Assembly: GCA_000165345.1 (NCBI GenBank)
Contig: CM000432.1
Location: 928,001 to 992,000, forward strand
Direction: 5' to 3'
DNA: 64,000 nt
Positions 10,701 through 39,850 of the stretch are shown here, one piece after another (the first letter of the stretch is position 1; each line of letters opens with the position of its first letter). A model generated the notes under the pieces. The model searched no databases, was not told the DNA's origin, and saw only the letters and a program-made list of their open reading frames with translations. Both the position numbers and the translations under genes were made by a program.

Positions 10701-13700
10701 CGATAGTATCGGGTCTGAGCTTAACAATCGAATAAATTGCATCGGTACTAGCTTCACCAAATGGATATAAGAAATGGCTAGGGATAATACTAGGGTGAGC
10801 ATAAGAAGAAGTTGGTAATGAAGAAGGAGAAGAACCGGAATTGAATCCTGAAGGATTTGAGTTTGGTTGTAAGTTTGAGGAGGAAGAAGATGGGTTACAT
10901 TGTTGTTGGTTTGGATGAGAAGTTGAATATCTAAAAAATTGTGGATTTTCATGCAAATATGATCTTCCTTCAAATGGTTCATTAAAAAGATCTCTTGAGA
11001 CTCCTGGATTTGAGAAATACCTAGCAGATTCATCAGCATATTGATCATAAATATCTGGGCTACTTTTCGTTTTGAAGTTTGACGTTTTATACAAACGAGA
11101 ATTTGAGGATTTGTCATTTAATTCTTGGTAAATTGTGTCATGGAAGTTCATCATGTTATTGAAGCTATGATTTTCAATATGACTATTGCTATTTCTCTTG
11201 CAGTATTTGCAATTATTTCTACAGTTTCTCGTATACTTTAAGGAGTCTCTGTATGCTTTGTAGTCTCTATTCTTTGAGTTAAAGGGATCATTACAAATGG
11301 AATTTTCCATCAAATTTCTATTTTTAGAGAAAAGTTCCGTATTCAGAGCCAAAGAATTATTTGAATTGTATTTGAAGGAGCTGTGAGAATTATCAGAATC
11401 AAGTCCAACAGCGTACTCTAATAGTTTTCTAATATTCTCAATGGATTTATGTGAAGGACCTCTTCCAATAACAATTTTTGCAATGCTTTCAGGACTGTCG
11501 TCAACTTTAACATAATTAATGGAGAAGATTGACCTTAATCTTGGAGGAAGGATAGTTAAAGGAAGATCTTCAGGAGGAATAGTGTTAGAAGGAGTTCTAT
11601 TTTGAGACTCTTCATTCTGAAGGAGAAAATTTATATTTGTCCTCCATTTATTATCAAAGAAATTCTTCGTTCCAGTACCACTATTTGCAAAGAATTCTTT
11701 TGGTTCTCTAAGAATTTTCTTTTCAGTTCGATTTGATAAATCTCTTATTAGTTTCTTCTTCTTAAGCTTGAGAGAAAGAACAATATCATCATTTAAATCA
11801 TTTCCAAATAAATTACCATCTTGATGTTCAAAGTGGGAAAATTGGTTCTCATTAAGCTGTAACATGGATGTAATATCAACATTCTTCACATTCTTTAAAA
11901 TATGGACCGAATTCATCACTCTTCTTCTCCATATTGAAGTGCTTCCCATTGTTTCTTCGGAGTATTTCACTGCTATTTCCAGAAGATAGTAAATAATTCT
12001 TGTGGATAACTTCCTACTGACTGCATAATATATTGGATCAGTCATACTGGATCTATTTGACCAGATATTAATGAAAGAGTATGAAATATTAAACTTTTCT
12101 TTCAAGGTATGAATAATACTCTTTAATGCTCTTAAAGGCTGCTTTGATTTTGCCAAAATCTGTAAAATAAGAGGAGAATTGGTTTTTGGATCTTTAAATT
12201 GAAGCATATCAATAATTAGCTTCTTTGGTATTCTCTGAGCCTTTTTGATGATTAAATTTAATGGATAAATACCATATCTATCATCTCTATGGGGATTACA
12301 ATTCTGATAACCTAACCATCTATTACGTATTGCTCTACTATAAAAGTCAAGAATTATTTGTATTTGCTTAATATTACCATAATAAGCAGACCACCAGAAA
12401 GCTCCTCTTCCTTCTTCATCAGTTACTTGACAAATCATTGCTACCTTCTTTTTGCTTTCCATTTTGAGTAATCTATTCAAAATTGAATCTGAGATTCGGA
12501 TTTTAACAATATCAAGAACGTGTCTCGCCTCTTTTTCATAATCCTTCAGTTGTTTGAAGAAGTGATCACGGTTAAATTGTTTTTTAAAAGTCTTTCCTAT
12601 AAGTTTAAGATCAGATTTATCTTGGAAAGTTACATATTCTAATATAATGGATCTAATATCATTATCAGAGGTATTAATATCATAATTAGCATGATTTACA
12701 ATCCTTTCAATCATTTTACCGTCATTTTCACGAATTGCAAGATCCATTACATCTAGACCAGAGATAGGTGAAATTCTTAATGGATCTCCTCCATTGTCCA
12801 TGATCAAGCTTAGCATTGCTCCATTATGGTTTTCTAAAGCTATCATTAAAGGATTTAAACCAGTTCTTGGATCCCATGTATTAACACAAGCTCCATTTGA
12901 GATTAAGATCTCAGCCATTTCAAGATCATTATTTTCAACAGCATAGAATAGAGAGGTATGATTATAGTTATCAACCATATTTACAAGTTTTTTTTGATCA
13001 CATTCTAAATTATGAGTCAAAAGTTCTGGAAAATGAGAATCTGATTGTGTAGATTGACTCTTGGGTAGTTGAGTATATGTGGAAGAACCATCATTTTGAA
13101 GTTGATTCAAAAAATCAAGATCTAGGTCTTTTTTCTTATTAGAGCAATTAGAATATATGGTTGATCTTGAAGAATTAAAATAGCTTAAGGAAGATGAGGG
13201 AGAAGAAGGTAAAGTTGTGGAATTTGAGAATTTGGGAAAAGATAAAGTGGAATGATTAAGATCAGAAGATGAAATATTGGTAATATTAAAGCCAGAGGAT
13301 GAATAGGAATATGTATCAAAATCTTCCGGAGTATTTGGATCATTTTTGGATGTATCATTAACATTTGAAATTTCAGCAAGAATGAATTTGACAATTGAAT
13401 GGTTGGATTTACTTACAGCTAGAGTAAATAATTGAGGAAACTTTTCAAAAATGTGAATATCGAGACCATATTCAATAAGTTTCTTAAGTATATGCAAAGA
13501 TCCACTCCTTTTACGTCTTATAAGATTATATAGAATATGGTATCCTCCTTCAGTATCTAAGACTTTGCTTTTAATATTATTAAGTTTCTTGCAATAGATA
13601 AGATTTCTTTTTTTATATTCAGTATTATAAGTGGTAATATTAAGCATAAGAGGTTCAATAATATCCAAAATAGCTCTTGAGCTCATATCAGTTTCAAGAA

Positions 13701-14280
13701 AATCTGCAATTAGATATAATGGATGAATGTAATATGTAAGTTTTTCTTCTAACGGTACTTTTTGTACTGGCCTTTTGTAATAAATTGGAATAATTGCATT
13801 TTTTCGAATTCTAGCATTAAATGAAAAAAGCATAGATCCATCATGGTTAATAGCAGAATAGAGCTTGTTATCTGAGATATCCTCATGGTCGTTTTCAAAA
13901 TATACTAAACTCTCAAAGAAATCTTCAGTATCGTCAAGTTTTCCTGTTAACAACAGATTCTTTGTAACCTCAGGAAGTTCAACAAGTTCATTAATAAATT
14001 CAGGAAACATCATTTCCTCTCCACCAAGAATTTTATTATCCTTATATAGCTTATCTTCAGATAACTGTTCTAATCCTGCTCTTTTATAGTAGTAATTATC
14101 ATGAACATTGTTGCAATTAGCAATAGGTCCTCTAATTTCAGATCTTTCGACAAATTGAATACTTTTTAAAGCCTCCAAAAAACTCAGAATTAGGAAACAA
14201 ATTAGAATAGTAAAATTAATTCTCTTGGATTCATTATTTCTTAAGAAGACATTTTTTGTCTTATTTTGTGTGTTTTTCAT
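7717..14280 (-). CDS. Giant ankyrin-repeat multi-pass membrane protein, paralog B (2187 aa)
   Basis: ATG confirmed at 14280. N-terminal signal-anchor (INFTILICFLILSFL), ankyrin repeats at about aa 440-520 (NHTSLFYAVENNDLEMAEILISNGACVNTWDPRTGLNPLMIALENHNGAMLSLIMDNGGDP), at least 8 predicted C-terminal TM helices, and long S/N-rich low-complexity inserts. Shares conserved blocks with paralog A. Confidence 0.7.
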   Translation of the reverse strand: MKNTQNKTKNVFLRNNESKRINFTILICFLILSFLEALKSIQFVERSEIRGPIANCNNVHDNYYYKRAGLEQLSEDKLYKDNKILGGEEMMFPEFINELVELPEVTKNLLLTGKLDDTEDFFESLVYFENDHEDISDNKLYSAINHDGSMLFSFNARIRKNAIIPIYYKRPVQKVPLEEKLTYYIHPLYLIADFLETDMSSRAILDIIEPLMLNITTYNTEYKKRNLIYCKKLNNIKSKVLDTEGGYHILYNLIRRKRSGSLHILKKLIEYGLDIHIFEKFPQLFTLAVSKSNHSIVKFILAEISNVNDTSKNDPNTPEDFDTYSYSSSGFNITNISSSDLNHSTLSFPKFSNSTTLPSSPSSSLSYFNSSRSTIYSNCSNKKKDLDLDFLNQLQNDGSSTYTQLPKSQSTQSDSHFPELLTHNLECDQKKLVNMVDNYNHTSLFYAVENNDLEMAEILISNGACVNTWDPRTGLNPLMIALENHNGAMLSLIMDNGGDPLRISPISGLDVMDLAIRENDGKMIERIVNHANYDINTSDNDIRSIILEYVTFQDKSDLKLIGKTFKKQFNRDHFFKQLKDYEKEARHVLDIVKIRISDSILNRLLKMESKKKVAMICQVTDEEGRGAFWWSAYYGNIKQIQIILDFYSRAIRNRWLGYQNCNPHRDDRYGIYPLNLIIKKAQRIPKKLIIDMLQFKDPKTNSPLILQILAKSKQPLRALKSIIHTLKEKFNISYSFINIWSNRSSMTDPIYYAVSRKLSTRIIYYLLEIAVKYSEETMGSTSIWRRRVMNSVHILKNVKNVDITSMLQLNENQFSHFEHQDGNLFGNDLNDDIVLSLKLKKKKLIRDLSNRTEKKILREPKEFFANSGTGTKNFFDNKWRTNINFLLQNEESQNRTPSNTIPPEDLPLTILPPRLRSIFSINYVKVDDSPESIAKIVIGRGPSHKSIENIRKLLEYAVGLDSDNSHSSFKYNSNNSLALNTELFSKNRNLMENSICNDPFNSKNRDYKAYRDSLKYTRNCRNNCKYCKRNSNSHIENHSFNNMMNFHDTIYQELNDKSSNSRLYKTSNFKTKSSPDIYDQYADESARYFSNPGVSRDLFNEPFEGRSYLHENPQFFRYSTSHPNQQQCNPSSSSSNLQPNSNPSGFNSGSSPSSLPTSSYAHPSIIPSHFLYPFGEASTDAIYSIVKLRPDTIGEILTRVSYKSPSDAIHVLALLDALPSDFPPFDEHAYSPLQRAATILYKYKGQRDTLPVLHALLSSRFVKLFSAEQLMESLNLLALIDYKPSSILELFGGLPSYCLYYGTQSGNVRHYYSKSGYWEMNFSSNKKDTIDEDNLGSSVGIDDKKNIFGFKEDFGNSESENYHFWNSNNNYDNMYNVENEKGQMEFIESFGTSKTNEGCPIKLSLIEKLREISNLPWENKLTKSDIVFVILCFVTALTLFSIYCNSNLSFYSICNPAKNKLIKYSSQINQETVLSDLGCNFTMDFGLVFMLNIPFPSKNNIKLGLLNSIKACFLINKVSEFPVRKYRSNHENLYESFQYSLISLIIKFSKAFNFIKLISILTFFIWIVISQIYEEIVCFVLLTCIAIIIYTFHGFRIDENMYDQLNSCFKCNNSLLLPEIMILYEQTNAQVIKTAKRAIYLHSNLRNATLSQTTDMKDISSKQIKKLLVSRNNLSPENTYTEIPEIGFLEISKLCYNNVEKTFKCYRLLFIVQVICLIFSFLITMKLPFNCYSSPEFSISRDWKYSSADLTFIFGNINSCRKLYQFQYPHLFQFTRFYPLTVSFLHFTAFIYYWQLLSMISSPIISVILALYHFHSLSSIFNSALSTPLSILLPNAKNSKILISQSYSSKEVSRANSIGTPLFSGEKKQSRDKKSTNKSFIIDDKNSILSSNGNNSPSAYLTKNSSNNSLKTQSNPNIRLQSVGEIAYGGPLEISNANIQTGNNKTTQVTDSFSLNPPQNTLNLLQPSNSTTPVNSINSKSPEIRLSNFLKLNHYSTEIQYQDFEHFEINYSKANLCNIESNSETSYYQVLEAQIYPFFIWADSRRTSHRICKYFWKPIDLFRDVLAIVTISFVLVYCYVEINSLPIKTIRLWNVVPISTLLLSASLLYIMHIMVEIHILTIEFWQWVPDVYDILPICSNLLNSVETTMRLLPFLTSPFYILNTPVKLPLLFGSILMFVLLINVNFS

Positions 14281-14784: not shown

Positions 14785-16458
14785 TTAACCGTCCCTAGAG
14801 TCACCAAAAGACTCCATATTTGGATTTTGCTCAATATTGTTCTGAACAGGATCTTTTTTCTTAGATACAGAGCTAAGAACATCGTCTATTCTGAGGAGCA
14901 TAAGAGTGGCTTCTACAGCAGTCTTATAGACTTGTTGCTTGACAGCAAGTGTATCCCAGATGCCGAGTTCCGTAACATTTGTAATAGCGCCAGTACATCC
15001 ATTAATTCCATGAACAGGTTTCTGCCCCCTGGTTGCAGATGAAGGTAGATAATGAGATTTTAATAAAGTCAAAGTCTTCATTACATTAGCTCCACAATTT
15101 TGAGCTAGAGTCTTTGGTATAATTTCCAGAGCTTGGGCGAAAGCTTTGTAGGCCCATACTTGGGTATCATCAATAGAAAATGACTTTTCATTCAAGTAAC
15201 AAGAAATGGCCATTTCTGTACCACCTCCGCCAGGAAGTAGAGCTGGATCAAGAAGGATATTTCTTGCAACAGCAAGAGCGTCATGGAGATTTCTCTCGAG
15301 CTCATTTAAGACGTCCTTGGATCCTCCTCGTAAAAGAATGGAGCATGCCTTTGGAGTTTTTGATTCGGTCAGGAAGCAAAAGTATTCATCTCCAATCTTC
15401 TTGACCTCGAATCTTCCGCAGCAAGTACCTACATCATTTGGTGTAAGCTCTTCTGTTCTGCTAGCAATAGTAGCTCCAGTGACTCTAGCGATTCTATTAT
15501 TATCGCTCTTCCTGACCCTTCTAATTACAGAAATTCCTGCCTTAACAAGGAAGTGTTGAGCAAGATCAGAAACACCTTTTTCTGTGAATACAACATTGCA
15601 ACCAGTTGCAATAATATCCTTACACATAGCTTCAACTTCTTCCTCCTCCTGTCTTAATAGAGCCTCCCAGTCTGCCTCCTTAGTGATTTCTACATTTGTC
15701 TGACTTTCGCCTTTCTTGTATTCAAGAGTACAGTCCAATAACAAAACCTTTGGATTAATGATCAATCTCTTCATTCGCGGGTGGACTACATCCTTGTTAA
15801 CAACTACACCATCTAAAACATAGCTATCCTCAATCTCACCTCCTGGAATCTTTTCAATTCTTACATATCTCTTAATATCAATTTCTTTTGGTGAACCTGA
15901 ATTAGCAATTGAGACAGTCTCAGCTGCTTTTAATGCCATAGAACTAATTAAACTACCCCATCTTCCAGAAAATTTAGTTTTTAAACAGGAGTCAACTACA
16001 CTAACCAAAGATTCTTTGTTATTTACATCCAATTTAACGCTCATTTCCTCCATGAACTTTATAGAGTCATCTAGTGCTCTTAAATAACCCTTTGCTATAA
16101 TTGTTGGATGTATGTTTTTCTGTAAGAGTGGCTCTGCACAAGCCAAGAACTCTCCTGCTAGAACTACAACACTTGTTGTTCCATCTCCTACTTCTTCATC
16201 TATAGTTCTTGAGAGTTCAATTATAGACTTTGCTCCTGGATGAGCAACATCAACCTCTCTCAAAATACTGTTTCCATCATTTGTAAGAACTATTCCACCC
16301 AAAGGATCTAAAAGCATTTTTAACATTGCTTTTGGGCCCAAAGTTGTTCTAACAACATCTGCAACAGTTTTTCCAGCTTGAATATTTCTTAACTGGGCTT
16401 TTCTTCCTTGATCTCTTTGAGAAGGTTGTTGTACAACCAAAACTTGATTTGGCATCAT
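14785..16458 (-). CDS. CCT3: T-complex protein 1 subunit gamma (CCT gamma chaperonin)
   Basis: ATG confirmed. N-terminus [103 protein letters not shown] aligns closely with eukaryotic CCT3. Group II chaperonin signatures present (GDGTTS ATP-binding motif). Confidence 0.9.
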
Positions 16459-17774: not shown

Positions 17775-19448
17775 ATGTTGAGAGCTCCAATAATTCTTTT
17801 GAAAGAAGGATCAGATACATCCCAAGGTAAAGGTCAAATCTTGAGTAATATCACAGCATGCCAAGCAATTGTTGATATTGTCAAGACGACTTTGGGTCCA
17901 TATGGCATGGATAAACTTATTCATAGCGGTAACTCTCCAGATGATGTAACAATTACCAATGATGGAGCAACAGTCTTGAATTTACTTGGAATTGTGCATC
18001 CTGCAGCAAAACTATTAGTAGAGATAGCAAAGGCACAAGATGATGAGGTTGGAGATGGTACTACAAGTGTAGTAATTTTAGCAGGCGAATTCTTAAAAGA
18101 AGCAAAGGGCTTTATTGAAGATGGAATGTCTCCACAAGTAATAATATCAGGTTTTAGAAAAGCAAGCCAAATAGCAATAGACAAGGTAAATAGTATGAAG
18201 ATCAGCCTTTCCGAGGAGACTCCAGAAAAGAGACGAAGTATGTTAATAAAATGTGCTGAGACAACTTTGAACTCAAAGTTATTAGCTCATTATAAGACTC
18301 ATTTTGCAGAAGTTGTAGTCGATGCTGTTTCATACTTGGATAATGAAATGGATAAAGACCTCATTGGGATTAAGAAGATTAATGGAGGGTCAGTTATGGA
18401 TAGTTTTCTAGTAAAGGGAGTAGCATTTAAGAAGACATTTTCATACGCAGGTTTTGAACAACAGCCAAAACATTTTGTGAATCCTAGAATCCTCTTATTA
18501 AATCTTGAATTGGAACTTAAGGCAGAGAAGGATAATGCTGAAGTTAGAATCTCTGACCCCACTGCCTACCAAAGTATTGTAGATGCAGAGTGGAAGATTA
18601 TCTTTGAGAAATTGGATCTCATTGCCAATTCAGGAGTAAATGTGGTTTTAAGCAGACTTGCAATTGGAGATTTGGCTACTCAGTACTTTGCTGATAGAAA
18701 TATCTTTTGTGCTGGAAGAGTTGAGGAGCAGGACCTTAAGAGAACCTCTTTGGCAACAGGAGCCATTGTGCAAACAACAGTTTATGGCTTAAACAAAGAT
18801 AGTGGAGTATTTGGTACTTGTTCTGAATTCGAAGAGGTTCAAATTGGAGCTGAGAGATATAATATCTTCAGAGACTGTGCAAAGACAAAGTCATCCACAA
18901 TGATCTTGCGTGGTGGTGCTCAGCAATTTATTGATGAAGCTGAGAGATCCTTGAATGATGCAATTATGATTGTAAGAAGAGCAATGAAATCATCATATAT
19001 TGTTCCTGGAGGAGGAGCTATTGAAATGGCTGTTTCTAAGACTATTAGAGATCACGCTAGAACAATTCTTGGTAAGGAGCAATTAGTCATGAATTCTTAT
19101 GCAAGAGCTCTAGAAGCAATTCCTAGATCCTTAGCAACAAACTCTGGGTTTGACTCCATTGATATCTTAAACAGACTTAGACAAAAGCACTCACAAAACA
19201 CCGAAGATTGTAGTAATTATGGTGTAGATTGCAGCAACGGAGGGATTTGCGATACTTTTAACTCATTCATTTGGGAGCCAGCTGTGAATAAGCTTAGTGC
19301 TTATTCAAGCGCAACAGAAGCTGCATGCTCTATTCTTTCTATTGATGAGACTGTTAAAAACAAGTCCAGTGAGGAGGATAGAATGCAGGGTCCTCTACCT
19401 GGAATGGGTGGTATCCCTCCAGGTATGATGGGCGGAGCAAGGAGATAA
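17775..19448 (+). CDS. CCT7: T-complex protein 1 subunit eta (CCT eta chaperonin)
   Basis: ATG confirmed. [51 protein letters not shown]...[47 protein letters not shown] matches CCT7 throughout. Gly/Met-rich C-terminal tail [15 protein letters not shown]. Confidence 0.9.
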
Positions 19449-20119: not shown

Positions 20120-23100
20120 ATGAATAGAAGAATTTTTAAAGAAACAAAGTTATTTTGGATTTTAATTCCAATTATAATATGTATAATATCACTTTCAACG
20201 AATATTTTTGATATTAATTCAATTGAAAAGAATAACAAAATATTTAAACTATGGAATGGAATATTAGAGAATGGAGATAAATTTTTAACAATAAGAAAGC
20301 TGGTAGGATTATCAAGAAATAAAGAATATAATCATAAGAAATATCCAATATTACGCCCAAAATATAATATTAGAGAAAAAAACAAGGTAAAAAATTGGAA
20401 TGACTTAGGGGTAGTATTGCAAAGTAAATGGCCACAAGTACCGTTAGAAGCTTCATTGATAGAATTTCTATCAGAGTTTTACCTAGGAATAGGAAGTACA
20501 TTTGAAGACTTAGTGAGAGATTTAATTAATATAAATAACCACGAAGATGGAAATAAAATTATTACAGCAAGGTTAGCAAGTGAATTGGTTGATAATAATC
20601 TAGGGATCAAATTAATGGAGACTATGGTAATTAATAAATACTATTCTCCTAGAATTGAGTCAATTCGAACATTAGAAAGAAATCAAAGAAGTGTTTTTGG
20701 AATAATATGCAAAAAGGCTAGTTGGTTTATTGTTATATATCAAGAAGAGACTGTTGATACATTTTGTAATTCCAATGATCTTTATAATAGTGTAATAAAA
20801 GGGAGATCTAAAGGATTTGAGAATGTAGAAAAATATGATTTAAGCTTCTCAAAATTTGATTTAGCAAAAGAACATATAATTGAAAATACTTATATCAATA
20901 TAGAAGAAAACAATAAAGTGAAAAAAATTGATATTTACGCATATGTCGATTTTTCAGAAGATAATTCTATAGAAATTTTGAATAACTTATTGAATATTTG
21001 GGATATATTAAAAGATCAAGGTCATGTAAGAATAAAAATTAGACATTGTGATAATGCTGATCTGAATGGTGAGATTGAATATTTATCTGGATTTGGAGTT
21101 TCAGTGAATAAACTATCAGAAAAATCGAATTCAGTAAATAATTCAAGTTCAGCTAAAAATGATATTTTTCAAAATGAGTTTAAATTCTCCCAACATAATC
21201 ATGATGAATTGGAATATTCTCACAAGGATGAAGAGTATAAAAACTTGACCGCAATGTGCGATAAAGCTGTGAATATGGAAAATGTATTAAATTCTGATGG
21301 GGATTTATCTATTGAATGTATGAAAGATATTGGAGCATTTCTAGTATCATTATCCAAAAGATTTGAGGACCAATTAGGTGCAATGGTACATTATTTAGAG
21401 AATTTTGGGACTTATCAAGTAGCATTGTGTAATGGATTAAGAGAAAACACTACTTTATCGGGCTATAATCAATTGCATGATCGTGTTTCAGAAGGATCCA
21501 CATTCTTTACTCTTAATGGAAGATTATTTTCCCCAACCGAAACAAATTTTTTTAATTTGGTTACTTTATTAAAGAGTTTAATTTTCTCAAAAATCAGATT
21601 AATGAAAAATAAGATCGATGATGAAGTTGTTATTATAGATTCTTTATCAATAACCGGAGTAAATGAGAAGGAAGAACTAAATCTATTTATGGAAAGTATT
21701 AATGGCCAATTGAATGATTCAAGAATTAATAACAAGTATAATAATGTAATAAAAGATAAGGGGTTAAAAAACCTAATAGAGAGAGGAGAAGTTCTTGATT
21801 TTGGCTCAATACTTGAATTTGAGAAGGATTTAGAAGAAGATCCAACTTTAATGGACGATACAGATTGGCTTGGGAAAAGAGAATATGTATTATCAAGCTC
21901 ATCTCCATGGCTGAAGAATTCTCCAAGAACTGATTGGAGAGTATCAAATATTCTTCCTTTGAAATCACGTCATTTTTACAAGGATATTACTAATATTGGT
22001 GATTCTCAATGGGGTGTGACTCCTAGTATTTTTGAAAAGGTATGGTTTCATAGAAACATTACTGAAAATAATGAAGATCAAGAGGATATTATTAATGATC
22101 TTGAAGAAAATAACTCCACTGAAGCGAAGATTTTACAAGAAATTGAATATTCACCATGGATAATGTACAGGATATATTTTTCAAATCAGGTTAAAAATTC
22201 GAGATTAATTCAAGATTATCCAATATATGATATTATGAAGGAACCAGAAAATACACTGGGTCAGTATTTATATCCATTAGAGAGTTTGCCAGAATTATTT
22301 GAAAAATATCCTGAAAATGTAGGGATTTATCCAGTCAAGGCTACAATTCTCGAAATAATAATAATGTGTGATCCATTTGATATAGAATGTATTACAGTGA
22401 CCATTGAAATGATTAATAAGAAGTGGCCAATAAAGTTAAACTTGTTATTAATAGACCCAGAATGGGTTAATTCCAGAAAGCCGGATTATTCTAGACCATT
22501 TTCATACAAAAATGTGACTTCAGAAGATGATTTTGAAGCTAAGTTTAGAGATATTTATGAAACTCAGAGAGAAATAGAAATTAATAAGGAAGGAAATCAA
22601 ACATACTGTAATAAAAATTATGGAGAGGAAAATGTTCAGAATTGCCCAAAGTGGATGAATAAGAAAAGAGGATTAAATTCTAGGAGGATATTGGATTACT
22701 ATGAGAAATTTGACAATAATTCAAAAGGAGAATATGCCTTGAAATTGGCAATTTCAGAAGTTTTTGGATTCTTGGTTTCTTCTTCTACAATTCAAGGAAT
22801 GTTTCTTGCAAGAGGTTTTATTGAAATGGTTGCAAAGAATTTACCATTAATATTAGAAGAAGAATTTACTTTAAGTCAGTTTCAAGAGTTTTTGAGTAAA
22901 TTCTTTGCTCATTTTAGTATCAATGCAGAATTAACCAAAGTTTGGGAGATTATTTATTCCAATAATCCAAATGATATATCTTACGTGAATAAGGTGGTAT
23001 CGTATTGTAGACTTAAAGGATTCACAACTCCTGGAGCTTTAGTTAATGGTTACTTTGTGGAAATTACTGATTTAATATTGGAAGAAGTAATCTATGGAAT

Positions 23101-26100
23101 AGCTAAAAAAGAACAGAGAATTATTTTGGAAGGTGTTAAACAAGGTCAAATCACCAGTAGTGATGATATTTATCATTATATATTTAATAATACATTAACT
23201 GGAATTAATTCAGTACCTATTGTTTTTCCACCATTCACAAAGTCGATGAAGTTTGAGAATTGGCCATTTATTGGAATACAAAATGAATGGAAACATATTG
23301 AAAAAGAAATCAATTATAAGCTTCATGAAAAATATGATATTGATAATTTGAAAGAAAATAGTAAGAAAAATGAAAATAATTCAATTTCTTACAAAGAAGA
23401 TAAAAGTGAATATCAAATCACCATTTTGGAAGAAAATGATAATGAGGAAAGGATTTTATTTGATTTTGAAGAATTATCAAGTTTGGAATATTCAACATTA
23501 TGGGATATTAATCCTGAATTAAAGCAAAATATGGAAAGTATTGAAAATAAGAGTCAATCAACTCCATGGATTACATTTATTGTATTAGTAAGATCATCGA
23601 GAACAGGATTATTAGGACTTTTAACTTTGATTGATTATTGGATTTCTACATTATCTTATCAAGCATCTATGCATCTGAATCAGTATAATGAATTATTATA
23701 TAATAGAAGATTCAGATTAATGTTTATTCCACCAAATGAAGTTCAACATAATTCAGATTTCTCACTGATTTTAGAAAAATGTATTGATGATATCTTATAT
23801 TTGAAAAAATATAACAAGGAAGGAAGAAAGATTTCATCTTTTGTTCCAATTTTGGAAAAGTTAAGGTTTATTAAATGGTTTGTCAAAGTAATCTTAGAGA
23901 ATATGGATGATTATATGGATTCTAGTCATTCTAAAATTAAAAGTGAGTTATTTGGAGAAAGAATTATTGAGATTTATGAGTCCCTTTCTTTTAGCTTTTT
24001 TGGAAAGTCTGGAAATGGGAGATTTAACGAAGAGAATTTAGAAGATATTTATTTAATTGAGTCTCAGAATAGAGTCAAAAACAAGTTGGTAAGTAAATTC
24101 TCATCTAGAAAAGAAAAAGAGGTAATATCTTTTCCATATTCTTCAGTGGGAAATGCTAAGTTAAAGGGTTTTCCAAAGTATACAAATTATAATTTAAATA
24201 AAGAAAAGTCTGATCCAAATTATGGAAGAGGAAGTTTCCAAGATACTGAATTATCAAATAAGGATTGTTTTGAAACTTTCACAATGGGAATTGTTATAAA
24301 TGGTGTCTATTTAAGAATTTGTCCAAATACATATCCTGTTTATTTGAGAAATGATATTAAAGTAAATTATTGGTCTTCTCCAATTCATTCTGTACATTTT
24401 AAACTATTGGAAACTGCAGTAACGAATAGAATGAGGCATTTGGTTTTATTTGGAGAGTTTAAGAGGACAGGAAAAAAGGAAGATCTTCTTTATAGAAGAA
24501 AATGGTCAAATATGGATCCAAACCAATTTTTTATGTTATTTAGTGAGCATTTACATGTTTCAAATTTATTCAAATCTGAATCTTTAATACAATTGGACGA
24601 CATTTTTGCTTCTTCAAGTTCACTTATTAAGCTTCATTTACCGACTGTTAATACAGGGAAAAGTTCAAATTTTAAAAATAATGCTTTGATTGGATTAGTG
24701 GCTGTAGTGAATCCCATTACACCTTATAGTACCAATATATTGAGATTATTTGATATTTTACATCAATTATTGGAAGCCGATGTAAAGCTGGTGTATAATC
24801 CTGTGATAAGTTATCAGAATATTAATGAGATTAATTTGATTGATACGTGGAGAAGGTATGTTTTTAATTATCCAAAGCTCAAATCATATAGGAAAGATAC
24901 TCCATATCAAGTAGTGACAAGCTTAAAGGAGCTAATGTATTCCAAAGGAGATCCAAGTGAATTTAAGATAGGTAAAGATGATTTATACTATTATAATTCT
25001 CAATTCATTGCAAAGTTCGATATACAAACAGAAAAGAGACTCAATATTAATATAGAAAAAAGTAATGATTGGAGTATAAGTTACTTAAAAACTATTTTTC
25101 GTCAATCAACAATTAGTAAAGAAAATGATTATTTTATTGTACCTGGTAATATTTCCAATGCAAAAGGAGAGTTATTGGTTTATGAACTTAAAGGTAAAGA
25201 GTTTGAAGCAACATTAATAGATAAATTGTCATCAGAAGTTGGGAATCTCAAGAATAATATAAAAGAAATTCAATTAATATTGCCATCAAGTAATTTCAAA
25301 TTTGAAATTGAATCTAAAAAAGTGTCACCAATACAAAAGATTTATTCAATAACTGATTTTAATAGTTTCTTTGGTTATCTTGGGATTGGAACTAATGATT
25401 TGGTACTAACTTTTGGTAGTGATATTAATAATAATACTACTAAGAAAGAAAATTTATCTATGAGTTTTCCAATTCAAGTATTTAATCAGAGATTATTTGA
25501 AACCAATCAATTTGTTGTACACCTTTCAAAATTATCAAAGATAAATAAAGAAAAAGTAAATTATGTAGAATTTAAAGAAAATTCAAGAAGATTATTTAGA
25601 GAGTTACATATTTTCTGTTTATCAACTCATATATTGAAAAAAGATGTTGAAGGAGATATAATAGATAAATTAATTGATCTAATTGATAAAGGATTTACAG
25701 GAAAAGCTGGAAATTACTATAATAAATTTATTATTTATTTTGATAGTAAAGATATTAGTCAAACAATAAGAGATTATTTCAACTACAAGTTATTTTGGAA
25801 ATATTATATAAATATAGAATATTTGGAAATTACAAGACCAAAATGGATACCTAGATTATCAAGTCAAAATAATAATTCAATGATGGATATTTTATTAACA
25901 TTAGAACATTGGATACCAACAAGAGTTAATAAATTGTTATTATTGGATCCATTTTTGTTGAATAGTAATACTTTTGATTTGGATGATTATTTTGGTCTAG
26001 TAAGTACAAATAAGACAATAAGTAATAATAAGATAAAAATAGGAGATTCAGCAATGACATTTATTAAAAAAAATGATAAAAGTGGATCAATAAGTACAAA

Positions 26101-26326
26101 AATGGGATTAATTTTGGTGAATAATTACAAGAAAATTGGGAGTTATTTAAAAAGAGCTTATTTTGAAATGTATTATGATTTTGAAGTTAGTAAGAAATTA
26201 AGACAAAATGAAGAAAATAATCAAAGTATGATGGATTTATTTATTTCTTATTTGAGAAGTAATAAAGAACTCAAGATTGAAGATGATACATATGAAAAAG
26301 ATCAAAACAAAATCCCAATTACTTAA
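20120..26326 (+). CDS. UDP-glucose:glycoprotein glucosyltransferase (UGGT)-like ER protein, 2068 aa, with divergent C-terminal GT8-like domain
   Basis: ATG confirmed. N-terminal signal/TM (LFWILIPIIICIISLS). N-terminal block EASLIEFLSEFY resembles UGGT EASEFL. IEYLSGFGVSVNKLSEK resembles UGGT VYLSGYGVELAIKSTEY. C-terminal block ITRPKWIPRL...LLTLEHWIPTRVNKLLLLDPFLL resembles the GT8 region YKWPRWL...FLDVLFPLVVDKFLFVDADQIV. The canonical DAD appears replaced by DPF and there is no HDEL-like terminus. These are by-eye alignments. Confidence 0.5.
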   Translation: MNRRIFKETKLFWILIPIIICIISLSTNIFDINSIEKNNKIFKLWNGILENGDKFLTIRKLVGLSRNKEYNHKKYPILRPKYNIREKNKVKNWNDLGVVLQSKWPQVPLEASLIEFLSEFYLGIGSTFEDLVRDLININNHEDGNKIITARLASELVDNNLGIKLMETMVINKYYSPRIESIRTLERNQRSVFGIICKKASWFIVIYQEETVDTFCNSNDLYNSVIKGRSKGFENVEKYDLSFSKFDLAKEHIIENTYINIEENNKVKKIDIYAYVDFSEDNSIEILNNLLNIWDILKDQGHVRIKIRHCDNADLNGEIEYLSGFGVSVNKLSEKSNSVNNSSSAKNDIFQNEFKFSQHNHDELEYSHKDEEYKNLTAMCDKAVNMENVLNSDGDLSIECMKDIGAFLVSLSKRFEDQLGAMVHYLENFGTYQVALCNGLRENTTLSGYNQLHDRVSEGSTFFTLNGRLFSPTETNFFNLVTLLKSLIFSKIRLMKNKIDDEVVIIDSLSITGVNEKEELNLFMESINGQLNDSRINNKYNNVIKDKGLKNLIERGEVLDFGSILEFEKDLEEDPTLMDDTDWLGKREYVLSSSSPWLKNSPRTDWRVSNILPLKSRHFYKDITNIGDSQWGVTPSIFEKVWFHRNITENNEDQEDIINDLEENNSTEAKILQEIEYSPWIMYRIYFSNQVKNSRLIQDYPIYDIMKEPENTLGQYLYPLESLPELFEKYPENVGIYPVKATILEIIIMCDPFDIECITVTIEMINKKWPIKLNLLLIDPEWVNSRKPDYSRPFSYKNVTSEDDFEAKFRDIYETQREIEINKEGNQTYCNKNYGEENVQNCPKWMNKKRGLNSRRILDYYEKFDNNSKGEYALKLAISEVFGFLVSSSTIQGMFLARGFIEMVAKNLPLILEEEFTLSQFQEFLSKFFAHFSINAELTKVWEIIYSNNPNDISYVNKVVSYCRLKGFTTPGALVNGYFVEITDLILEEVIYGIAKKEQRIILEGVKQGQITSSDDIYHYIFNNTLTGINSVPIVFPPFTKSMKFENWPFIGIQNEWKHIEKEINYKLHEKYDIDNLKENSKKNENNSISYKEDKSEYQITILEENDNEERILFDFEELSSLEYSTLWDINPELKQNMESIENKSQSTPWITFIVLVRSSRTGLLGLLTLIDYWISTLSYQASMHLNQYNELLYNRRFRLMFIPPNEVQHNSDFSLILEKCIDDILYLKKYNKEGRKISSFVPILEKLRFIKWFVKVILENMDDYMDSSHSKIKSELFGERIIEIYESLSFSFFGKSGNGRFNEENLEDIYLIESQNRVKNKLVSKFSSRKEKEVISFPYSSVGNAKLKGFPKYTNYNLNKEKSDPNYGRGSFQDTELSNKDCFETFTMGIVINGVYLRICPNTYPVYLRNDIKVNYWSSPIHSVHFKLLETAVTNRMRHLVLFGEFKRTGKKEDLLYRRKWSNMDPNQFFMLFSEHLHVSNLFKSESLIQLDDIFASSSSLIKLHLPTVNTGKSSNFKNNALIGLVAVVNPITPYSTNILRLFDILHQLLEADVKLVYNPVISYQNINEINLIDTWRRYVFNYPKLKSYRKDTPYQVVTSLKELMYSKGDPSEFKIGKDDLYYYNSQFIAKFDIQTEKRLNINIEKSNDWSISYLKTIFRQSTISKENDYFIVPGNISNAKGELLVYELKGKEFEATLIDKLSSEVGNLKNNIKEIQLILPSSNFKFEIESKKVSPIQKIYSITDFNSFFGYLGIGTNDLVLTFGSDINNNTTKKENLSMSFPIQVFNQRLFETNQFVVHLSKLSKINKEKVNYVEFKENSRRLFRELHIFCLSTHILKKDVEGDIIDKLIDLIDKGFTGKAGNYYNKFIIYFDSKDISQTIRDYFNYKLFWKYYINIEYLEITRPKWIPRLSSQNNNSMMDILLTLEHWIPTRVNKLLLLDPFLLNSNTFDLDDYFGLVSTNKTISNNKIKIGDSAMTFIKKNDKSGSISTKMGLILVNNYKKIGSYLKRAYFEMYYDFEVSKKLRQNEENNQSMMDLFISYLRSNKELKIEDDTYEKDQNKIPIT

Positions 26327-27704: not shown

Positions 27705-28182
27705 TTTTTTTTAATCAAAAAAAAAGTACCGATAATTTTTTCTATACCGGTTACACGTAATTAAGTTATAAACCGGTATTTTTTTTTTTTTTTTTAATTT
27801 AAACAAAAATAAAAATTTGAAATTATGATATAATTGAACAATTATTAAATAAATCAATATATTCTGAAGATTAGCACTAATAAAATATTTTGAATTTAAC
27901 ATTTAAATAGTAAATGAAAGTACAAATTCAATAAACTTAGAACCCAAAGGAATATACAAAAACTCCGCCCCACACTATCATCTTTTGGATCTATTAACAA
28001 TATTAAACATAAATTGAATTAATTATTTTTGTGTGTATTGATAAAGAGATATTTTTTCTTTGTTATTATTATTATTTAATACATAAACAAAAAAAAAAAA
28101 AAGAAAAAGAAAGTGCATAAAAAAGAATTCAGAGTTGAAATTAAATATAATATAACAAACATTAACATTTTACTAATAAATT

Positions 28183-28893
28183 ATGTCTTCATTTATTCCA
28201 GGTATAAGAAAAGAACATTTGGAGGAAAGTTTGGAAGATTCAGTTGAAAATTCAATAGAAGATGACTTATTGAGTGAATATTTTCAAGAATTGTCATCTT
28301 TGATTGAAGAATTAAAACAAGGAAAAGAAATATTTCAACAAAATAAGGCAAAATATACAGAACAAGAAAAAGCAAAGTATCAAGCATTAATACTTTCATC
28401 TCAAAAATTACTGGAAATTATTTACTTTGAAATTCATTTTAGTGAATCAAATACAAGAAATTATCAAGATTTTCAGAATTATATCAAATATAAAGAGAAT
28501 CTTTCAAAATTATATCAAGATTTCTCCAAATTTGTAGTTTTTGTTGAATCTGATAATAAAAATGAAGAAATCTTAATTTCAAATTCATCATCAAAAGAAG
28601 ATACTAATTTTGATTCATCCTTAAACAATAATGATTTATTATTAGAAAAAAATAAAGAATATATCTTTGAAGAAAATATCAAAGAAAAAACTTCAAAAGA
28701 TTATTATTTACTTCAAAGTAAAAGATTATTAGAAGAAACAAATCAATATAGTCAACAAATACTTTTAAATCTAAATACACAAAAAGAACAATTAATAAGT
28801 ACCGATAATAAAATGGGTAATATATCAAAAAGTTTACAAGATTCATCATTATTAATAGACAAAATGACAAGATGGTGGCATCAACTTATCTAA
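28183..28893 (+). CDS. Vti1-like Qb-SNARE (coiled-coil protein, no transmembrane anchor detected)
   Basis: ATG confirmed. The C-terminal heptad segment QILLNLNTQKEQLISTDNKMGNISKSLQDSSLLIDKMTRW aligns with the Vti1 SNARE motif ILTDLHGQREQLERTRSRLVNTDENLSKSRKILRSM. The ORF stops (HQLI*) exactly where the TM helix would begin. Confidence 0.5.
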   Translation: MSSFIPGIRKEHLEESLEDSVENSIEDDLLSEYFQELSSLIEELKQGKEIFQQNKAKYTEQEKAKYQALILSSQKLLEIIYFEIHFSESNTRNYQDFQNYIKYKENLSKLYQDFSKFVVFVESDNKNEEILISNSSSKEDTNFDSSLNNNDLLLEKNKEYIFEENIKEKTSKDYYLLQSKRLLEETNQYSQQILLNLNTQKEQLISTDNKMGNISKSLQDSSLLIDKMTRWWHQLI

Positions 28894-28899
28894 TTATTA

Positions 28900-30181
28900 T
28901 TAAATGTTAAAATAAGGATGAAATGAAGAAGGAAATTCATCCATATCCTCAAATCTACTGATTACTATATATCTCTTTAATAAATGAGAAGAAGAAAACT
29001 CTTGAAATTTTGAATTATTGAAAATATTATTTATCATACTACTTTTTTGTATTTCTTTCTCTATATTAATTTCATCTTGATCCTGATCTGCATCTTCATC
29101 TTTAAATCCATTATTACTTGTATTAAAATTTGTATTCAATTCTAAATTCTTATATTTTATATAAATTTTTTGTATTATATATTCCGATACCTTTAGATCA
29201 CGAGACATATTTAATAAGGTATCGATTTCATTAATATTCATTAAAATTTCTTTTGATCTGTTTCTAACAAATTCAAGAATATGAGTATTTAAATTAAATT
29301 TCTCAAATTTATAATCTTTGAAAATTATACATAATAAAGATAAAGCAATTTTATAAACTGTAATGTTAAAATTCTTGCTTGGATCATGAATTATTATATT
29401 ATCTAAAATTAGTATTGAATTTATTGCATATTCTGTATCAGCAATATCATAAGTAAATAATGTAAGAAACCATTGTATTGCAAAAAGTTCTGAAGTTATT
29501 TCTATTTCATTTTCTTTATTATTAAAAATATTATCATATATTTCTGGTAGATATTCTTTAATTAGTTCATTAAATACAAAACACATTTCTCTAAGTTTAA
29601 TTAAACCTTTATTATATATTTCTTGATATTCCCAATTTATTAATATTGACATTACTGATGAATAAACTTGTTCAACATTAAAATCTAAAGCATATAAAAA
29701 GATTCCAACCAAATAATTCATTCCTTGACAGTAACCAACATTAGGTAATGCATAAGAAATCTTGAAAAGTATTTCAATCATTTTATTTTGATTTTCATTT
29801 ATTTGAAATTCTTTTAATTTAGGAAAAGTTCTTGATATATCTCTTAATATTTCATCGTGATTATTTAACATTGTATCTAATTCACTTTCATATGATAATA
29901 CAAAATCATTTTTACTTTCTTTTTTTAATCTTATTTCTTCAATCTTCTTATTATCTTCAATACAAAGTTCATATTTATCTTCACCAATAAGTATACATTT
30001 CCATATCCATTTTCTTTGATTTTTATTGAATTTATTTAATTGTATTGGATATCTTTCTTGTAGAGTTTTAATAGAGTTAGCTTCAGCAAGCCATAATTTA
30101 CATACTAAAGAGGCTTCTTTTATATCATCTTCATCTAAGAATGTAAACAAACCAGAATTTAATACTGATCTACAATTTTTA
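28900..30181 (-). CDS. TBC-domain Rab GTPase-activating protein, exon 2 (3' exon)
   Basis: TBC catalytic signatures: arginine finger IxxDxxR (EILRDISRTFP) and glutamine finger YxQ (GYCQGMNYLVGIFLYAL). The ORF-track start at 30150 is a TTG, not ATG. The frame stays open upstream to the acceptor AG at 30183..30182. Confidence 0.75.
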
Positions 30182-30247
30182 CTAAATATTTTATTAATTA
30201 TTTAAAATAAAATTATTATTATTATTTTTTTTCATTTTATTACTTAC
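30182..30247 (-). other. Intron (66 nt) of the TBC RabGAP gene, GTAAGT donor and TATTTAG acceptor
   Basis: The minus strand reads ...AATAATAG|GTAAGTAATAAAATG...AATATTTAG|TAAAAATTGTAGA. Splicing joins exon 1 (phase 2) to exon 2 in frame. Total CDS 1491 nt, divisible by 3. Intron is about 95% AT. Confidence 0.6.
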
Positions 30248-30456
30248 CTATTATTATGATTCACTAATAACTTTCTTATAAATCCATCTTTTAATTGATT
30301 GTTCATATTGTTATATCCATTATTTTTACCTTTTTCAATATTTACTAGATTAGTTTTTTCATTTGGTTCATTTTCTTTGATTTTCAATTCTAATTCTGCC
30401 AAACATAACTTGTCAACATTTTTAAAATTCTTGTCTTTTTTTCTTTTTCTAATCAT
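30248..30456 (-). CDS. TBC-domain RabGAP, exon 1 (MIRKRKKDKNFKNVDKLCLAELELKIK...VNHNN|)
   Basis: First true ATG at 30456..30454; the ORF-track M at 30459 is GTG. The exon ends phase 2 at the GTAAGT donor. The junction gives ...NHNNSKNCRSVLNSGLFTFLDEDDIKEASLVCKLW, an F-box-like motif. Confidence 0.55.
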
Positions 30457-30510
30457 CACAATAAAATAATTTTTAAATATTTTAATATCTTAATAATATA
30501 TTTACGCGAA

Positions 30511-30527
30511 TGCATGCATGCATGCAT
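30511..30527. promoter_or_regulatory. Tandem GCATGC repeats (tgcatgcatgcatgcat) immediately upstream of the TBC gene start
   Basis: Read directly, 55-70 bp upstream of the ATG at 30456. GCATGC is a known over-represented upstream element in Cryptosporidium. Confidence 0.45.
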
Positions 30528-30571
30528 ATATGTATTACTAATAAAACAGAGATATAGATAATTAATTACAA

Positions 30572-30640
<69 letters not shown>

Positions 30641-30972
30641 TCTTCTTATTACTTTTTCCTTTCTTATAATAAAAAAGAAAAAAAAGACTTCTATTCACTT
30701 ATTTACTTCTAAGGAAAAGAAAACAATGTAATTATGCATGTAATGTATAATACTACACAAATCCATTAATCCAGTTTATTAAAGACTTCCAATATACAAT
30801 TAATTATTCCAAATTCAAATTTTTTCTCTATTCAATTTTTTTTTTCAAATTCTTTTTTTTTACCCTTTTATTATATATTTAAAAAAAAAAAAAAAAATCC
30901 CACTCTTTACAAAATTTTCTTTTCATGATCCAACCCACCCGCCAAATCTATTTTACCGTTTCTCGGTACCAA

Positions 30973-30986
30973 AAATGGCGGGAAGC
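30973..30986. promoter_or_regulatory. E2F-type site AAATGGCGGGAAGC
   Basis: Read directly, about 520 bp upstream of the TBC gene ATG. Confidence 0.35.
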
Positions 30987-32597
30987 ATGTTTCACACGTA
31001 ATATAGAAATTAATGTAAAACAACAAGATTAAAAATATGAACAATTTAAATCAATAAATAGATAAACATATATAAATATAGAGGAATATTCGGTTAGTAA
31101 TAATAATAATCTATACGGTTTTCTTTAGTTACTCAGAAATCTAAAAAAAAAAGAAAATCAAAATCAGAAATGATAAAATCTCGTTTTTTAACTATCTGGT
31201 TTTCTTTTTTTTTTTTCTTTTCTCCTACTTATCCACGGTCTTCTTATTTATCATTTAAATATACATTTAACAACTAGTAAATGCTATTCTATTATTTATT
31301 TATTATTATCATTGAATAAATTAATAAGAAGTTGAACCTTATGCATATATACATAACTCTCCATATTTAAAAAAAAAAAAATAAACCAGTTAGAAATGGT
31401 TGTTTAATTTTTTTTTGTGATAAATTTTTGAAATATTCATGGTACAAAGAATCTTAATAACAGGTATCATCAACCAATTATCTTCTATTGTATATTATTC
31501 TGTATTTGTACTATGCCAATTATAAAATAAGTGAAGAGAAAAAAGAATTATTATTATTATTATTATTTTGAAATTAAATTTTGTATCATCAATGTAAAAA
31601 AAAAAAAAAGAAAAGAAAATGAATAAATTATTCATATGTCACCATCTTTTGTTCTTTATTATATAGATTGAAAATTTACCAATTAACTCTTGTTTTACTT
31701 TTCCTCTGTAAAGAAATAAAACAGCATAATCTTTGCATGTATAACACATATACATTTGATAATTATATCAACAGTTAAAAAAAGGAAAAAAAGATGGTAT
31801 ATATTATATTTCAATTGTTCAAGTCATCTCAATAAAATATAAGAAATTGTGTAATTTTTAGCTTAAATTAGTAGACTAATTAACAAATAATAAATAGCTA
31901 AAATTACATAATTGCATACTCTCCACAATAAAGCTCATAAATATTTGTGATTTTTCTTCATTCTTATATCTTCTTGTTTTTGTTACAGATTCAGTAATTA
32001 ATCTGAAAAAGAAAAGAAGCTAAAATTTAAAATATTTTAAGCTGCTGAGTAGTTATTATATTCCAAATATTATTGGTAATTTCAAATCAGAGAGATTCCA
32101 ATATAATGTATAGGAGCAAAGCTTAAAGAGTGTGTATATATCTTACCACAAATGTAAATACTAGAAACTCTCCATTTTTTTTTTAAATCATTCTCCATTA
32201 CATTAATGATTTTTTTTTCTATTCAAAAATATCCCAATAATAATAAGTTAACATCTTTTTTTATACTTTATAGTAATAAACATATGACCAATATTATGGA
32301 ATAATAATAAATAAAACTGTTAGATAAAAAAAAAGAAGAAAAGAATCCATAAATCATAATGTAAGTCCAGTTACACCACAGTAATAACAATACCAAGTAG
32401 AGATCATTATTTTATGGCTATTTAAACATATGATCCAATATATTTAATAATAATAATAATAATAGTATTAATATATTTATTGAATCAATACCATTCAAAA
32501 TAATCTTTTTTTATTTTTTTTTGTTTGGAAATTAAACAATATCTCTAAACGATCCATCTCATATTAATCATTATTAACATTGAATCATAAATGATTC

Positions 32598-33611
32598 TTA
32601 TAAGGCTAAAATATCATGTACAGCAGAAATCTCCTCAATAATAGCAGATTCTTTGATTTTATTAAAATAAGCATCATTTAAAGATACTGATAAGGATCTT
32701 TTTTGCTTCAAATGATGATCACGATCATCATTTTTTAATCCAGTATTTACACAAGAATAATGTTCTTGAGATACTTGTACTATTTTACAATCATTGATAA
32801 ATTCTCCTCTTCTATTAGGAAAATTAATGTTGTGATTACTATTTCCTACTTCATAAGAAATGATTGAAGAAGTAGAATTAGTTGAGGAGCATACATACAT
32901 ACTATTATAATTAGTAGTATGATTTTCATAATCCTTCTTAAATCCAATTTGTTTAAAATATTCAAGAGAAAAAATCGCGCTTTCATCATCAATAACAATT
33001 TCTAATTGATTATCATTTTCATCCTTATCTGAAGGAGTTGTTGTTGATAAAATATCTCGAACAGATTCATGACCATGTATAATAGAATTACGATATTTTG
33101 ATATATATTTGCGTGAATTCCCAAGATCACTTCTACTTCTACCAATATTACAAGTATTGTCATTATTTAAAGTAGAATTTTGATAAGTTGTAAATCTTTC
33201 ATATGCACCAAAACTGTAATCACTCTTATCATCAAAATCAACCAAATTATTGAGATAATTATTGCCATTTAACATATCTCTTAGCACTTTCTTTTTATGT
33301 ATTAATAAAAGTTCAGGTCTCTCAAAGAATAGACTTGAGTTATCATCACATATTGATTGATTATTACTATTTCTACTATTGTTTCCATTAATAGCAATAG
33401 GACCATTATTATTATTTGGAATATTTCCAAAATTTTGAAGAAATGAATCACCATCTAATAAGGTATTTCTTTTATTCTTTCTTCTATCTCCATCCAAATG
33501 ATAATATTCAATAGCTCTCATTAAACTAATAGGAATATATAAAACAGATCCAACCACTCCAACCCCTAAAAAATATACACCAACACAAAAAGCAGATGCT
33601 GGATCAATCAT
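32598..33611 (-). CDS. Hypothetical single-pass (signal-anchor) membrane protein, 337 aa, N/S-rich
   Basis: ATG confirmed. N-terminal hydrophobic helix FCVGVYFLGVGVVGSVLYIPISL. No recognisable domain. It is the only ORF inside the roughly 6 kb AT-rich tract. Confidence 0.4.
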   Translation of the reverse strand: MIDPASAFCVGVYFLGVGVVGSVLYIPISLMRAIEYYHLDGDRRKNKRNTLLDGDSFLQNFGNIPNNNNGPIAINGNNSRNSNNQSICDDNSSLFFERPELLLIHKKKVLRDMLNGNNYLNNLVDFDDKSDYSFGAYERFTTYQNSTLNNDNTCNIGRSRSDLGNSRKYISKYRNSIIHGHESVRDILSTTTPSDKDENDNQLEIVIDDESAIFSLEYFKQIGFKKDYENHTTNYNSMYVCSSTNSTSSIISYEVGNSNHNINFPNRRGEFINDCKIVQVSQEHYSCVNTGLKNDDRDHHLKQKRSLSVSLNDAYFNKIKESAIIEEISAVHDILAL

Positions 33612-33659
33612 CTTTCAAATAGTATGAGGAATTGAAAATCGATTAAAGTTTAGTTGTTT

Positions 33660-35800
<2,141 letters not shown>

Positions 35801-36042
35801 TATATTGTGTGAACCATAATGTTACTCATTACTTTATAAAGTAGTGGTGTGAATATGTTATATGATATTATGTGATATTATACATTGGATTGTTTTAGTT
35901 TTTGTAAAAGAGAATGTGGATTTTGGTATCCCTTGCCTGCTTATTCCCGTTATCTGTTTTCCCATCATCCTCTTGTCGTTGAATTTATTTTAAGCCGTAT
36001 TTCTCTACCAACCAATATACCCTGCGGTTACATCTCACATCT

Positions 36043-39699: not shown

Positions 39700-39850
<151 letters not shown>

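Follow-up and report, generated by a model that had tools for sequence, protein, structure and literature searches.

The stretch of Cryptosporidium parvum DNA analysed here (the window: 64,000 nucleotides, positions 928,001 to 992,000 of the forward strand of contig CM000432.1, assembly GCA_000165345.1) contains a complete single-exon gene (20120..26326, + strand, in window coordinates) that runs from an ATG start through 2068 codons to a stop. Its product is the same, residue for residue, as EAK87743.1 of C. parvum Iowa II, which the sources seen label either "hypothetical protein" or "large protein with signal peptide"; it is a full-length descendant of UDP-Glc:glycoprotein glucosyltransferase (UGGT), i.e. 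a strongly degenerate form of a known family that is not annotated as UGGT in those sources. A preliminary description of this open reading frame (ORF) had proposed a catalytically dead UGGT-like pseudo-enzyme from strings matched by eye (YLSGFGVSV, KWIPRL and LLLLDPFLL). The ORF and all three strings are present as described, and the proposal is supported by the analyses below, the protein being, to judge from its sequence, probably inactive. Orthologues of 2022-2078 amino acids occur in C. hominis, C. meleagridis, C. tyzzeri, chipmunk genotype I, C. ubiquitum, C. felis and C. ryanae. The unusual C-terminus is not the product of a frameshift or of faulty annotation, the ORF being intact and colinear in eight species.

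The N-terminus (20120..20209, +) forms a predicted signal peptide or signal anchor, with a basic n-region followed by LFWILIPIIICIISLS, and is given as "signal peptide" in the source annotation. Residues 11-29 are the sole strongly hydrophobic segment of the protein (Kyte-Doolittle 2.34; next peak 1.59), such that the product has a signal peptide for secretory entry and is otherwise soluble. The C. parvum protein ends ...EKDQNKIPIT and, as had been remarked, carries no K/HDEL-type signal for retrieval to the endoplasmic reticulum (ER); the C-terminal ends of the Cryptosporidium orthologues are unlike one another. The earlier estimate of some 500 additional residues also holds, the 2068 amino acids comparing with approximately 1500 in the UGGT chains of the Protein Data Bank (PDB), and the lineage-specific excess takes the form of insertions scattered through the middle of the protein.

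Downstream of the signal peptide lies a UGGT-like thioredoxin-like (Trx-like) region (20408..21577, +; aa 97-486) that runs into TRXL2 and whose landmarks are LQSKWPQVPLEASLIEFL (aa 100-117), NKYYSPRIESIRTLER (aa 172-187) and IRHCD...YLSGFGVSV, the latter nonapeptide occupying aa 321-329 (nt 21080-21106). An exhaustive HMMER search of 1.84 billion (1.84e9) representative proteins with a profile of aa 60-1250 yielded, apart from C. felis and C. ryanae, nothing but two fragments of environmental origin, P0136 (E = 5.3e-5) and P0137 (E = 9.4e-4). P0136 carries a bona fide PF18401 domain (65.7 bits) together with PF18402, and matches solved UGGT structures by phmmer (Chaetomium thermophilum, E = 4.9e-8; Thermomyces dupontii, E = 2.8e-6). 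Alignment of the Cryptosporidium sequences to P0136 with hhalign was highly significant (Prob 95.7, E = 8.4e-9, 361 columns) and begins at the mature N-terminus, takes in NxYYSPxIE, RHxD and L(S/T)G(F/Y)G and continues into TRXL2. Because the stretch of P0136 aligned to Cryptosporidium overlaps that which matches the solved UGGT structures, YLSGFGVSV can be identified as the counterpart of UGGT LSGYGVELAIK, in accord with the original by-eye match. The N-terminal region is thus homologous to the Trx-like domains of UGGT by profile methods, by way of an environmental intermediate; direct hhalign comparison with residues 6-373 of human UGGT1 gave P = 0.025 and 0.0086.

Both environmental proteins are UGGT-like N-terminal fragments, one from ENA metagenomes and one from a Logan assembly, P0136 corresponding to positions 433-2406 of contig L001. 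P0136, P0137 and Cryptosporidium have in common the motif N-x-YYS-x-x-(I/V)E-x-x-R-x-x-ER-R, at which our human UGGT1 sequence (see below) reads LRSYSATIQAF, and the two fragments may represent a related protist UGGT lineage. No GT24 exon was recognisable downstream of P0136 or elsewhere on L001.

A second region of similarity is a conserved middle segment (24599..25093, +; aa 1494-1658: ...LIGLVAVVNPIT...LRLFDILHQLLEADVKLVYNP...TWRRYVFNYP...), in which the pattern "VAVVNP...WRRYVFNYP" corresponds to UGGT "...VVAVVDPVT...LRVFMN...SFYRYVLEP", approximately 250 residues upstream of the catalytic domain. The human UGGT1 sequence used for comparison is a reconstruction rather than a database record and stands in for full-length UGGT; it matches the C. 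thermophilum UGGT structure with E = 7.8e-229, and over its C-terminal part it shows 99-100% identity to database clusters. Against a template combining this sequence with L003, a genuine UGGT gene from a metagenome with PF18400-18404 in its gene calls, hhalign aligned the middle segment with a score of 42.9 (Prob 81, P = 1.2e-5), as compared to 13.2+-1.9 (maximum 17.9) for 100 column shuffles, placing the real score at a z of about 16. When the six-species alignment was compared to the human sequence over its length, residues 97-486 matched human residues 6-373 (P = 0.025, as above) and residues 960-2041 matched 576-1415 (P = 0.0033). The similarity to UGGT is accordingly real and spans the whole protein, three colinear regions being matched.

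The third of these is a GT24-like domain of predicted GT-A fold (25595..26254, +; aa ~1826-2045), with the elements beta1 (LHIFCLS), beta2 (NKFIIYFDS), RPKWIPRL, beta4 (KLLLLD) and MGLILVNNYKK; KWIPRL occupies aa 1908-1913 (nt 25841-25858) and LLLLDPFLL aa 1939-1947 (nt 25934-25960). A first hhalign comparison of a 739-residue C-terminal alignment (aa 1330-2068) with 22 diverse GT24 domains gave P = 0.16; narrowing it to aa 1815-2068 and adding C. ryanae raised the score to 31.0 (P = 0.0017, 150-225 columns) in the same register. In this register, found independently of the preliminary description and reproducing its by-eye alignment, KWIPRL faces the KWPxWL of UGGT and LLLLDPF faces VIFVDAD. 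None of 240 shuffled controls (120 by column and 120 by block) reached 31.0, their maximum being 23.6, and sixteen other 254-residue segments of the same protein scored 12.8-19.4 over short alignments.

Structure prediction had been among the checks originally proposed, and two template-free models, built from Cryptosporidium sequences only (5-6 close relatives), both retrieve UGGT catalytic domains. The 254-residue C-terminal model (pLDDT 64.9, pTM 0.65) follows the beta-alpha-beta pattern of the GT-A fold, whilst the AlphaFold model of aa 1330-2068 (pLDDT 33.7) is unusable for detail and nonetheless retrieves UGGT with Foldseek. The top Foldseek matches were UGGT catalytic domains and LARGE1 (E ~1e-5), the searches covering 48,164 and 350,542 PDB chains and UGGT being the best match. 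On the models, then, the C-terminal domain has a GT-A fold of GT24 type. The label GT8 that it had first been given is apt for the fold, which is GT8-like, and fails for the family, as the UGGT domain belongs to CAZy GT24: no sequence match to PF01501 (GT8) was found and the resemblance is at fold level only. GT8 enzymes such as the LARGE1 xylosyltransferase domain, XXYLT1, LgtC and glycogenin differ further in having no counterpart of the N-terminal and middle regions, and their DxD and His/Asp metal ligands are absent from the Cryptosporidium protein.

Routine tools see little of this. The sole Pfam match in the C. parvum protein is to PF18401 (Thioredoxin_13, UGGT TRXL2; 21302..21577, +; aa 395-486; E = 0.0011), whose 19.3 bits fall short of the gathering score of 26, and it recurs at the equivalent place in C. 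ubiquitum, C. felis and C. ryanae (18.6-22.2 bits), below threshold in every orthologue tested. None of PF18400-PF18403 reached its gathering score, and PF18404, PF06427 and PF01501 gave no match with the whole protein nor, up to E = 10, with the isolated C-terminal domain of four species. Searches of PDB sequences by phmmer and hmmsearch, with the protein or the full alignment as query, returned chance matches only, and a word-indexed homologue search with alignment found nothing except four Cryptosporidium orthologues. Of the profile checks that the preliminary description had suggested, Pfam PF06427 and PF18404 gave nothing, PF18401 a sub-threshold match and hhalign a match to GT24. Presumably it is because standard tools are blind to the UGGT similarity that the gene lacks annotation.

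Such sub-threshold Pfam and PDB matches, together with low direct hhalign probabilities, are what would be expected were the protein unrelated to UGGT, its resemblances arising by chance in a lineage-specific protein of large size and biased composition that ends in a generic Rossmann-like domain. We consider this very improbable, given that three separate regions match in UGGT order, that the environmental bridge P0136 is significant in both directions, that UGGT is the best structural match among all PDB chains searched, and that the shuffle and within-protein controls are clean. The statistics for the N-terminus and middle segment given above likewise establish significant similarity to UGGT.

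Set beside UGGT itself (CAZy GT24; PF18400-PF18404 and PF06427; structures 5MU1, 5NV4, 5Y7O, 6FSN and 5H18), the Cryptosporidium protein thus has a signal peptide and, in the same order, a Trx-like region (W-P...LEAS-EFL, YSP-I, RH-D, LSG(F/Y)GV), the segment "VAVV(D/N)P...(F/W)(Y/R)RYV" and a GT-A domain that retains a KWPxW-like motif and the first DxD aspartate after beta4. The differences are its greater length, the replacement of DAD, the termination of the domain before WLWCETWC / DLCNNPxTKEPKL, the absence of DQDLPN, SVASGHLYER, GAPYGYTPFCD and K/HDEL, the lack of any Pfam family above threshold, and a source organism that is reported to lack the calnexin/calreticulin cycle.

In UGGT structures the DxD pair and an aspartate in DQDLPN, the third metal ligand, coordinate Ca2+. 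Profile alignment places D1943-P1944-F1945 (25946..25954, +), directly after the predicted beta4 strand, opposite UGGT D-A-D, confirming the replacement of DAD by DPF that had been read by eye. The triplet is DPF in four species, DPV in C. felis and DPY in C. ryanae: its aspartate and proline are invariant (6/6 species), its third position is never acidic, and the second metal-binding aspartate is therefore gone. A displaced DxD at D1953-L-D1955 was rejected, as it falls within the helix that follows beta4, is aligned with UGGT "R-T-D-L" and is unconserved (DLN in C. ubiquitum, DAY in C. ryanae); no intact DxD was found elsewhere.

Whilst loss of the DxD had thus been recognised correctly, the degeneration proves far wider. 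Of the GT24 alignment columns, 138 show conservation of at least 90% in 22 UGGTs; when these were projected onto the six-species Cryptosporidium alignment, 25 of the near-invariant positions turned out to be kept in C. parvum and 7 across all six species, the survivors being S1880, P1907 and W1909 of the KWPxW motif, L1928, D1943, Y2014 and L2045. The hexapeptide aligned to DQDLPN is RQNEEN (aa 2028-2033; 26201..26218, +), which varies between species (D201 to R/K/I/K/E/N, D203 to N/N/G/-/A/-), alignment confidence here being low. The nucleotide-binding SVASGHLYER loop after beta1 and GAPYGYTPFCD are not recognisable, YHISALYVVDL...GDRLRGQY is mostly gone with scattered residues left, and the WLWCETWC / DLCNNPxTKEPKL block is absent because the protein terminates approximately 35 residues beyond the DQDLPN-equivalent, so that the C-terminal third of the GT24 domain, with many of its invariant residues, is missing. 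With the second metal aspartate, DQDLPN, the post-beta1 loop and the last third of the domain all lost, the C-terminal domain is most likely a pseudo-glucosyltransferase, in which the fold has been kept and the parts that carry out UGGT chemistry have been lost.

The gene is nevertheless constrained. The ratio of non-synonymous to synonymous substitution (dN/dS) from C. parvum is 0.16 to C. meleagridis and 0.20 to C. ubiquitum for the whole gene; the UGGT-like sensor regions are the best-conserved parts (0.10-0.16) and the GT-like domain the most relaxed (0.30 and 0.24, respectively), remaining well below 1. At least eight species of the intestinal Cryptosporidium clade have kept the gene intact, in synteny and under purifying selection, and it therefore still does something. 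The exhaustive HMMER search yielded no orthologue from gastric C. muris or C. andersoni, the presence of gastric proteomes in the searched set being unconfirmed. All of the orthologues detected belong to the intestinal clade of Cryptosporidium.

Haserick and colleagues are said to have found in 2017 that C. parvum lacks the machinery for quality control that depends on N-glycans. Cryptosporidium is also listed among organisms with no functional N-glycan-dependent quality control in a review summarising Banerjee et al. 2007 (PMC3184424), and no glucosidase II, calnexin or calreticulin gene lies within the 64-kb window. Passages of a 2022 genomic reconstruction of glycosylation pathways (PMC9713705), the latest of its kind, report that ALG5, ALG6, ALG8 and ALG11 are present in intestinal and absent in gastric Cryptosporidium species, that gastric species make only Man3GlcNAc2, that the main N-glycan of C. 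parvum is Glc1Man5GlcNAc2, and that the C. parvum glucosidase II orthologue has no signal peptide, which leaves the source of a monoglucosylated N-glycan unexplained. No UGGT-like gene is mentioned in those passages of the reconstruction that were searched (PMC9713705), and we found no paper describing the present one in the literature on Cryptosporidium and UGGT or glycoprotein glucosyltransferase. The apparent absence of the gene from gastric species parallels the gastric loss of ALG5/6/8/11 reported there (PMC9713705). The co-occurrence of the gene with a glucosylated long arm fits a glycan-reading pseudo-enzyme or, less probably, an unusual glucosyltransferase that is still active.

The latter would be a UDP-Glc:glycoprotein glucosyltransferase with a remodelled site, metal-independent or differently coordinated, that reglucosylates the long-arm Man5GlcNAc2 in intestinal Cryptosporidium. 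In its favour, the GT-A fold is retained under purifying selection, the invariant residues include D1943, P1907, W1909 and Y2014 together with a few Lys/Asp positions, Glc1Man5GlcNAc2 is the most abundant glycan of C. parvum, whose glucosidase II orthologue lacks a signal peptide, and the gene is found only in species that are reported to retain ALG5/6/8/11 (PMC9713705). We regard such an enzyme as unlikely, since 113 of the 138 near-invariant GT24 positions are altered, the second DxD aspartate is replaced by a hydrophobic or aromatic residue in each of the six species, the DQDLPN-equivalent differs between species, the post-beta1 nucleotide-binding loop and C-terminal third of the domain are absent, and only 38 of 254 domain positions are invariant among the six Cryptosporidium species. 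A stronger form of the proposal, in which a DxD-less working glucosyltransferase generates the dominant Glc1Man5GlcNAc2 as a stripped-down, calnexin-independent "glucose tagging" that was lost in gastric species along with ALG5/6/8/11, appears to us quite unlikely; if true, it would explain why monoglucosylated N-glycan predominates despite no evident ER-targeted glucosidase II.

The nearest precedent for a UGGT descendant without glucosylation is Saccharomyces cerevisiae Kre5p, a UGGT orthologue that no longer glucosylates and is kept where reglucosylation quality control is non-functional (PMC3184424). The parallel is a functional one; Kre5p is tied to beta-1,6-glucan synthesis, a process not in evidence in Cryptosporidium, and the two divergences are independent. 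It could be argued that the Cryptosporidium protein has, like Kre5p, been recruited to another pathway, serving a different glycan or oocyst-wall material with no role in folding surveillance left. Besides the Kre5 precedent (PMC3184424), the approximately 500 residues of lineage-specific insertion, the missing ER-retrieval signal and strong divergence in a constrained gene would accord with such recruitment, which we hold to be unlikely as well: no particular alternative pathway is suggested by the window or the sequence, conservation is highest in the UGGT-like sensor regions, and the proposal overlaps the best explanation rather than excluding it.

That explanation, which we consider probable, is that the gene encodes a fast-evolving full-length UGGT descendant with a pseudo-glucosyltransferase domain, working as a glucosylation-independent, Kre5p-like luminal factor. 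Its architecture comprises, in order, a signal peptide, a thioredoxin-like "misfold-sensor" region, a conserved pre-catalytic segment and a C-terminal GT24/GT8-type GT-A domain. The retained UGGT scaffold might then bind non-native proteins and/or the Man5 long-arm N-glycan in the lumen of the secretory pathway, a chaperone or lectin-like role for which the ER would be the presumed location.

Several observations weigh against this explanation. The middle segment aligned to L003 alone scores only 19.8 (P = 0.042), though above all shuffles, and its best statistic hinges on the reconstructed human UGGT1 sequence; a Cryptosporidium-only hidden Markov model of the segment finds C. thermophilum UGGT in the PDB at E = 1.7 only. 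The Pfam families of UGGT all stay below their gathering scores, as set out above, the sequence-level statistics obtained directly for the GT-like domain are modest (P = 0.0017 with an hhalign probability of 16%), and the structure models, made from few closely related sequences, are of moderate (pLDDT 65) or poor (pLDDT 34) confidence. The first aspartate, D1943, and P1907/W1909 of the KWPxW-like motif are invariant, and because some GT-A transferases operate without a DxD its loss is no proof of inactivity; the dominant Glc1Man5GlcNAc2 is moreover the kind of product that UGGT makes. Finally, the ER location is deduced for a protein that has no K/HDEL.

The gene order around the UGGT-like gene is common to C. 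parvum, C. meleagridis and C. ubiquitum: upstream lie two CCT/TCP-1 genes, and downstream those for a tRNA-binding/GST-C protein, a SNARE and a RabGAP. The chaperonin subunit genes, directly upstream and divergently transcribed (14785-16458, -, and 17775-19448, +), encode 557 amino acids each and are only 29% identical to each other, and are therefore different subunits; the divergent pair is kept in C. meleagridis and C. ubiquitum. Elsewhere in the window, two very large ORFs (1578-6788, -, and 7717-14280, -; 1736 and 2187 aa) each contain one short Pfam ankyrin-repeat block and are otherwise unannotated. An ORF of 861 aa (45686-48271, -), in which a signal peptide and a C-terminal transmembrane helix are accompanied by runs of acidic residues and by long repeats in tandem (type QPKTILIQTVPITQPKPKPKPKQxVTQTAPKQ), coincides with a strong AT-skew anomaly (-0.305). 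Positions 28001-40000 form a 12-kb stretch of low G+C content (0.18-0.21, compared to 0.25-0.35 elsewhere) with few long ORFs.

Cryptosporidium serves as an example of a eukaryote that no longer has N-glycan-dependent ER quality control, and a constrained UGGT descendant nonetheless survives in its intestinal species: in the dismantling of the calnexin cycle, the sensor scaffold would seem to have outlasted the chemistry. A natural pseudo-enzyme form of UGGT could reveal what the Trx-like sensor does without glucosylation. In sequence the protein is specific to the parasite, it is under purifying selection in the species compared, and its gene is a concrete and testable candidate where the predominance of Glc1Man5GlcNAc2 in C. 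parvum, as yet unexplained, is concerned.

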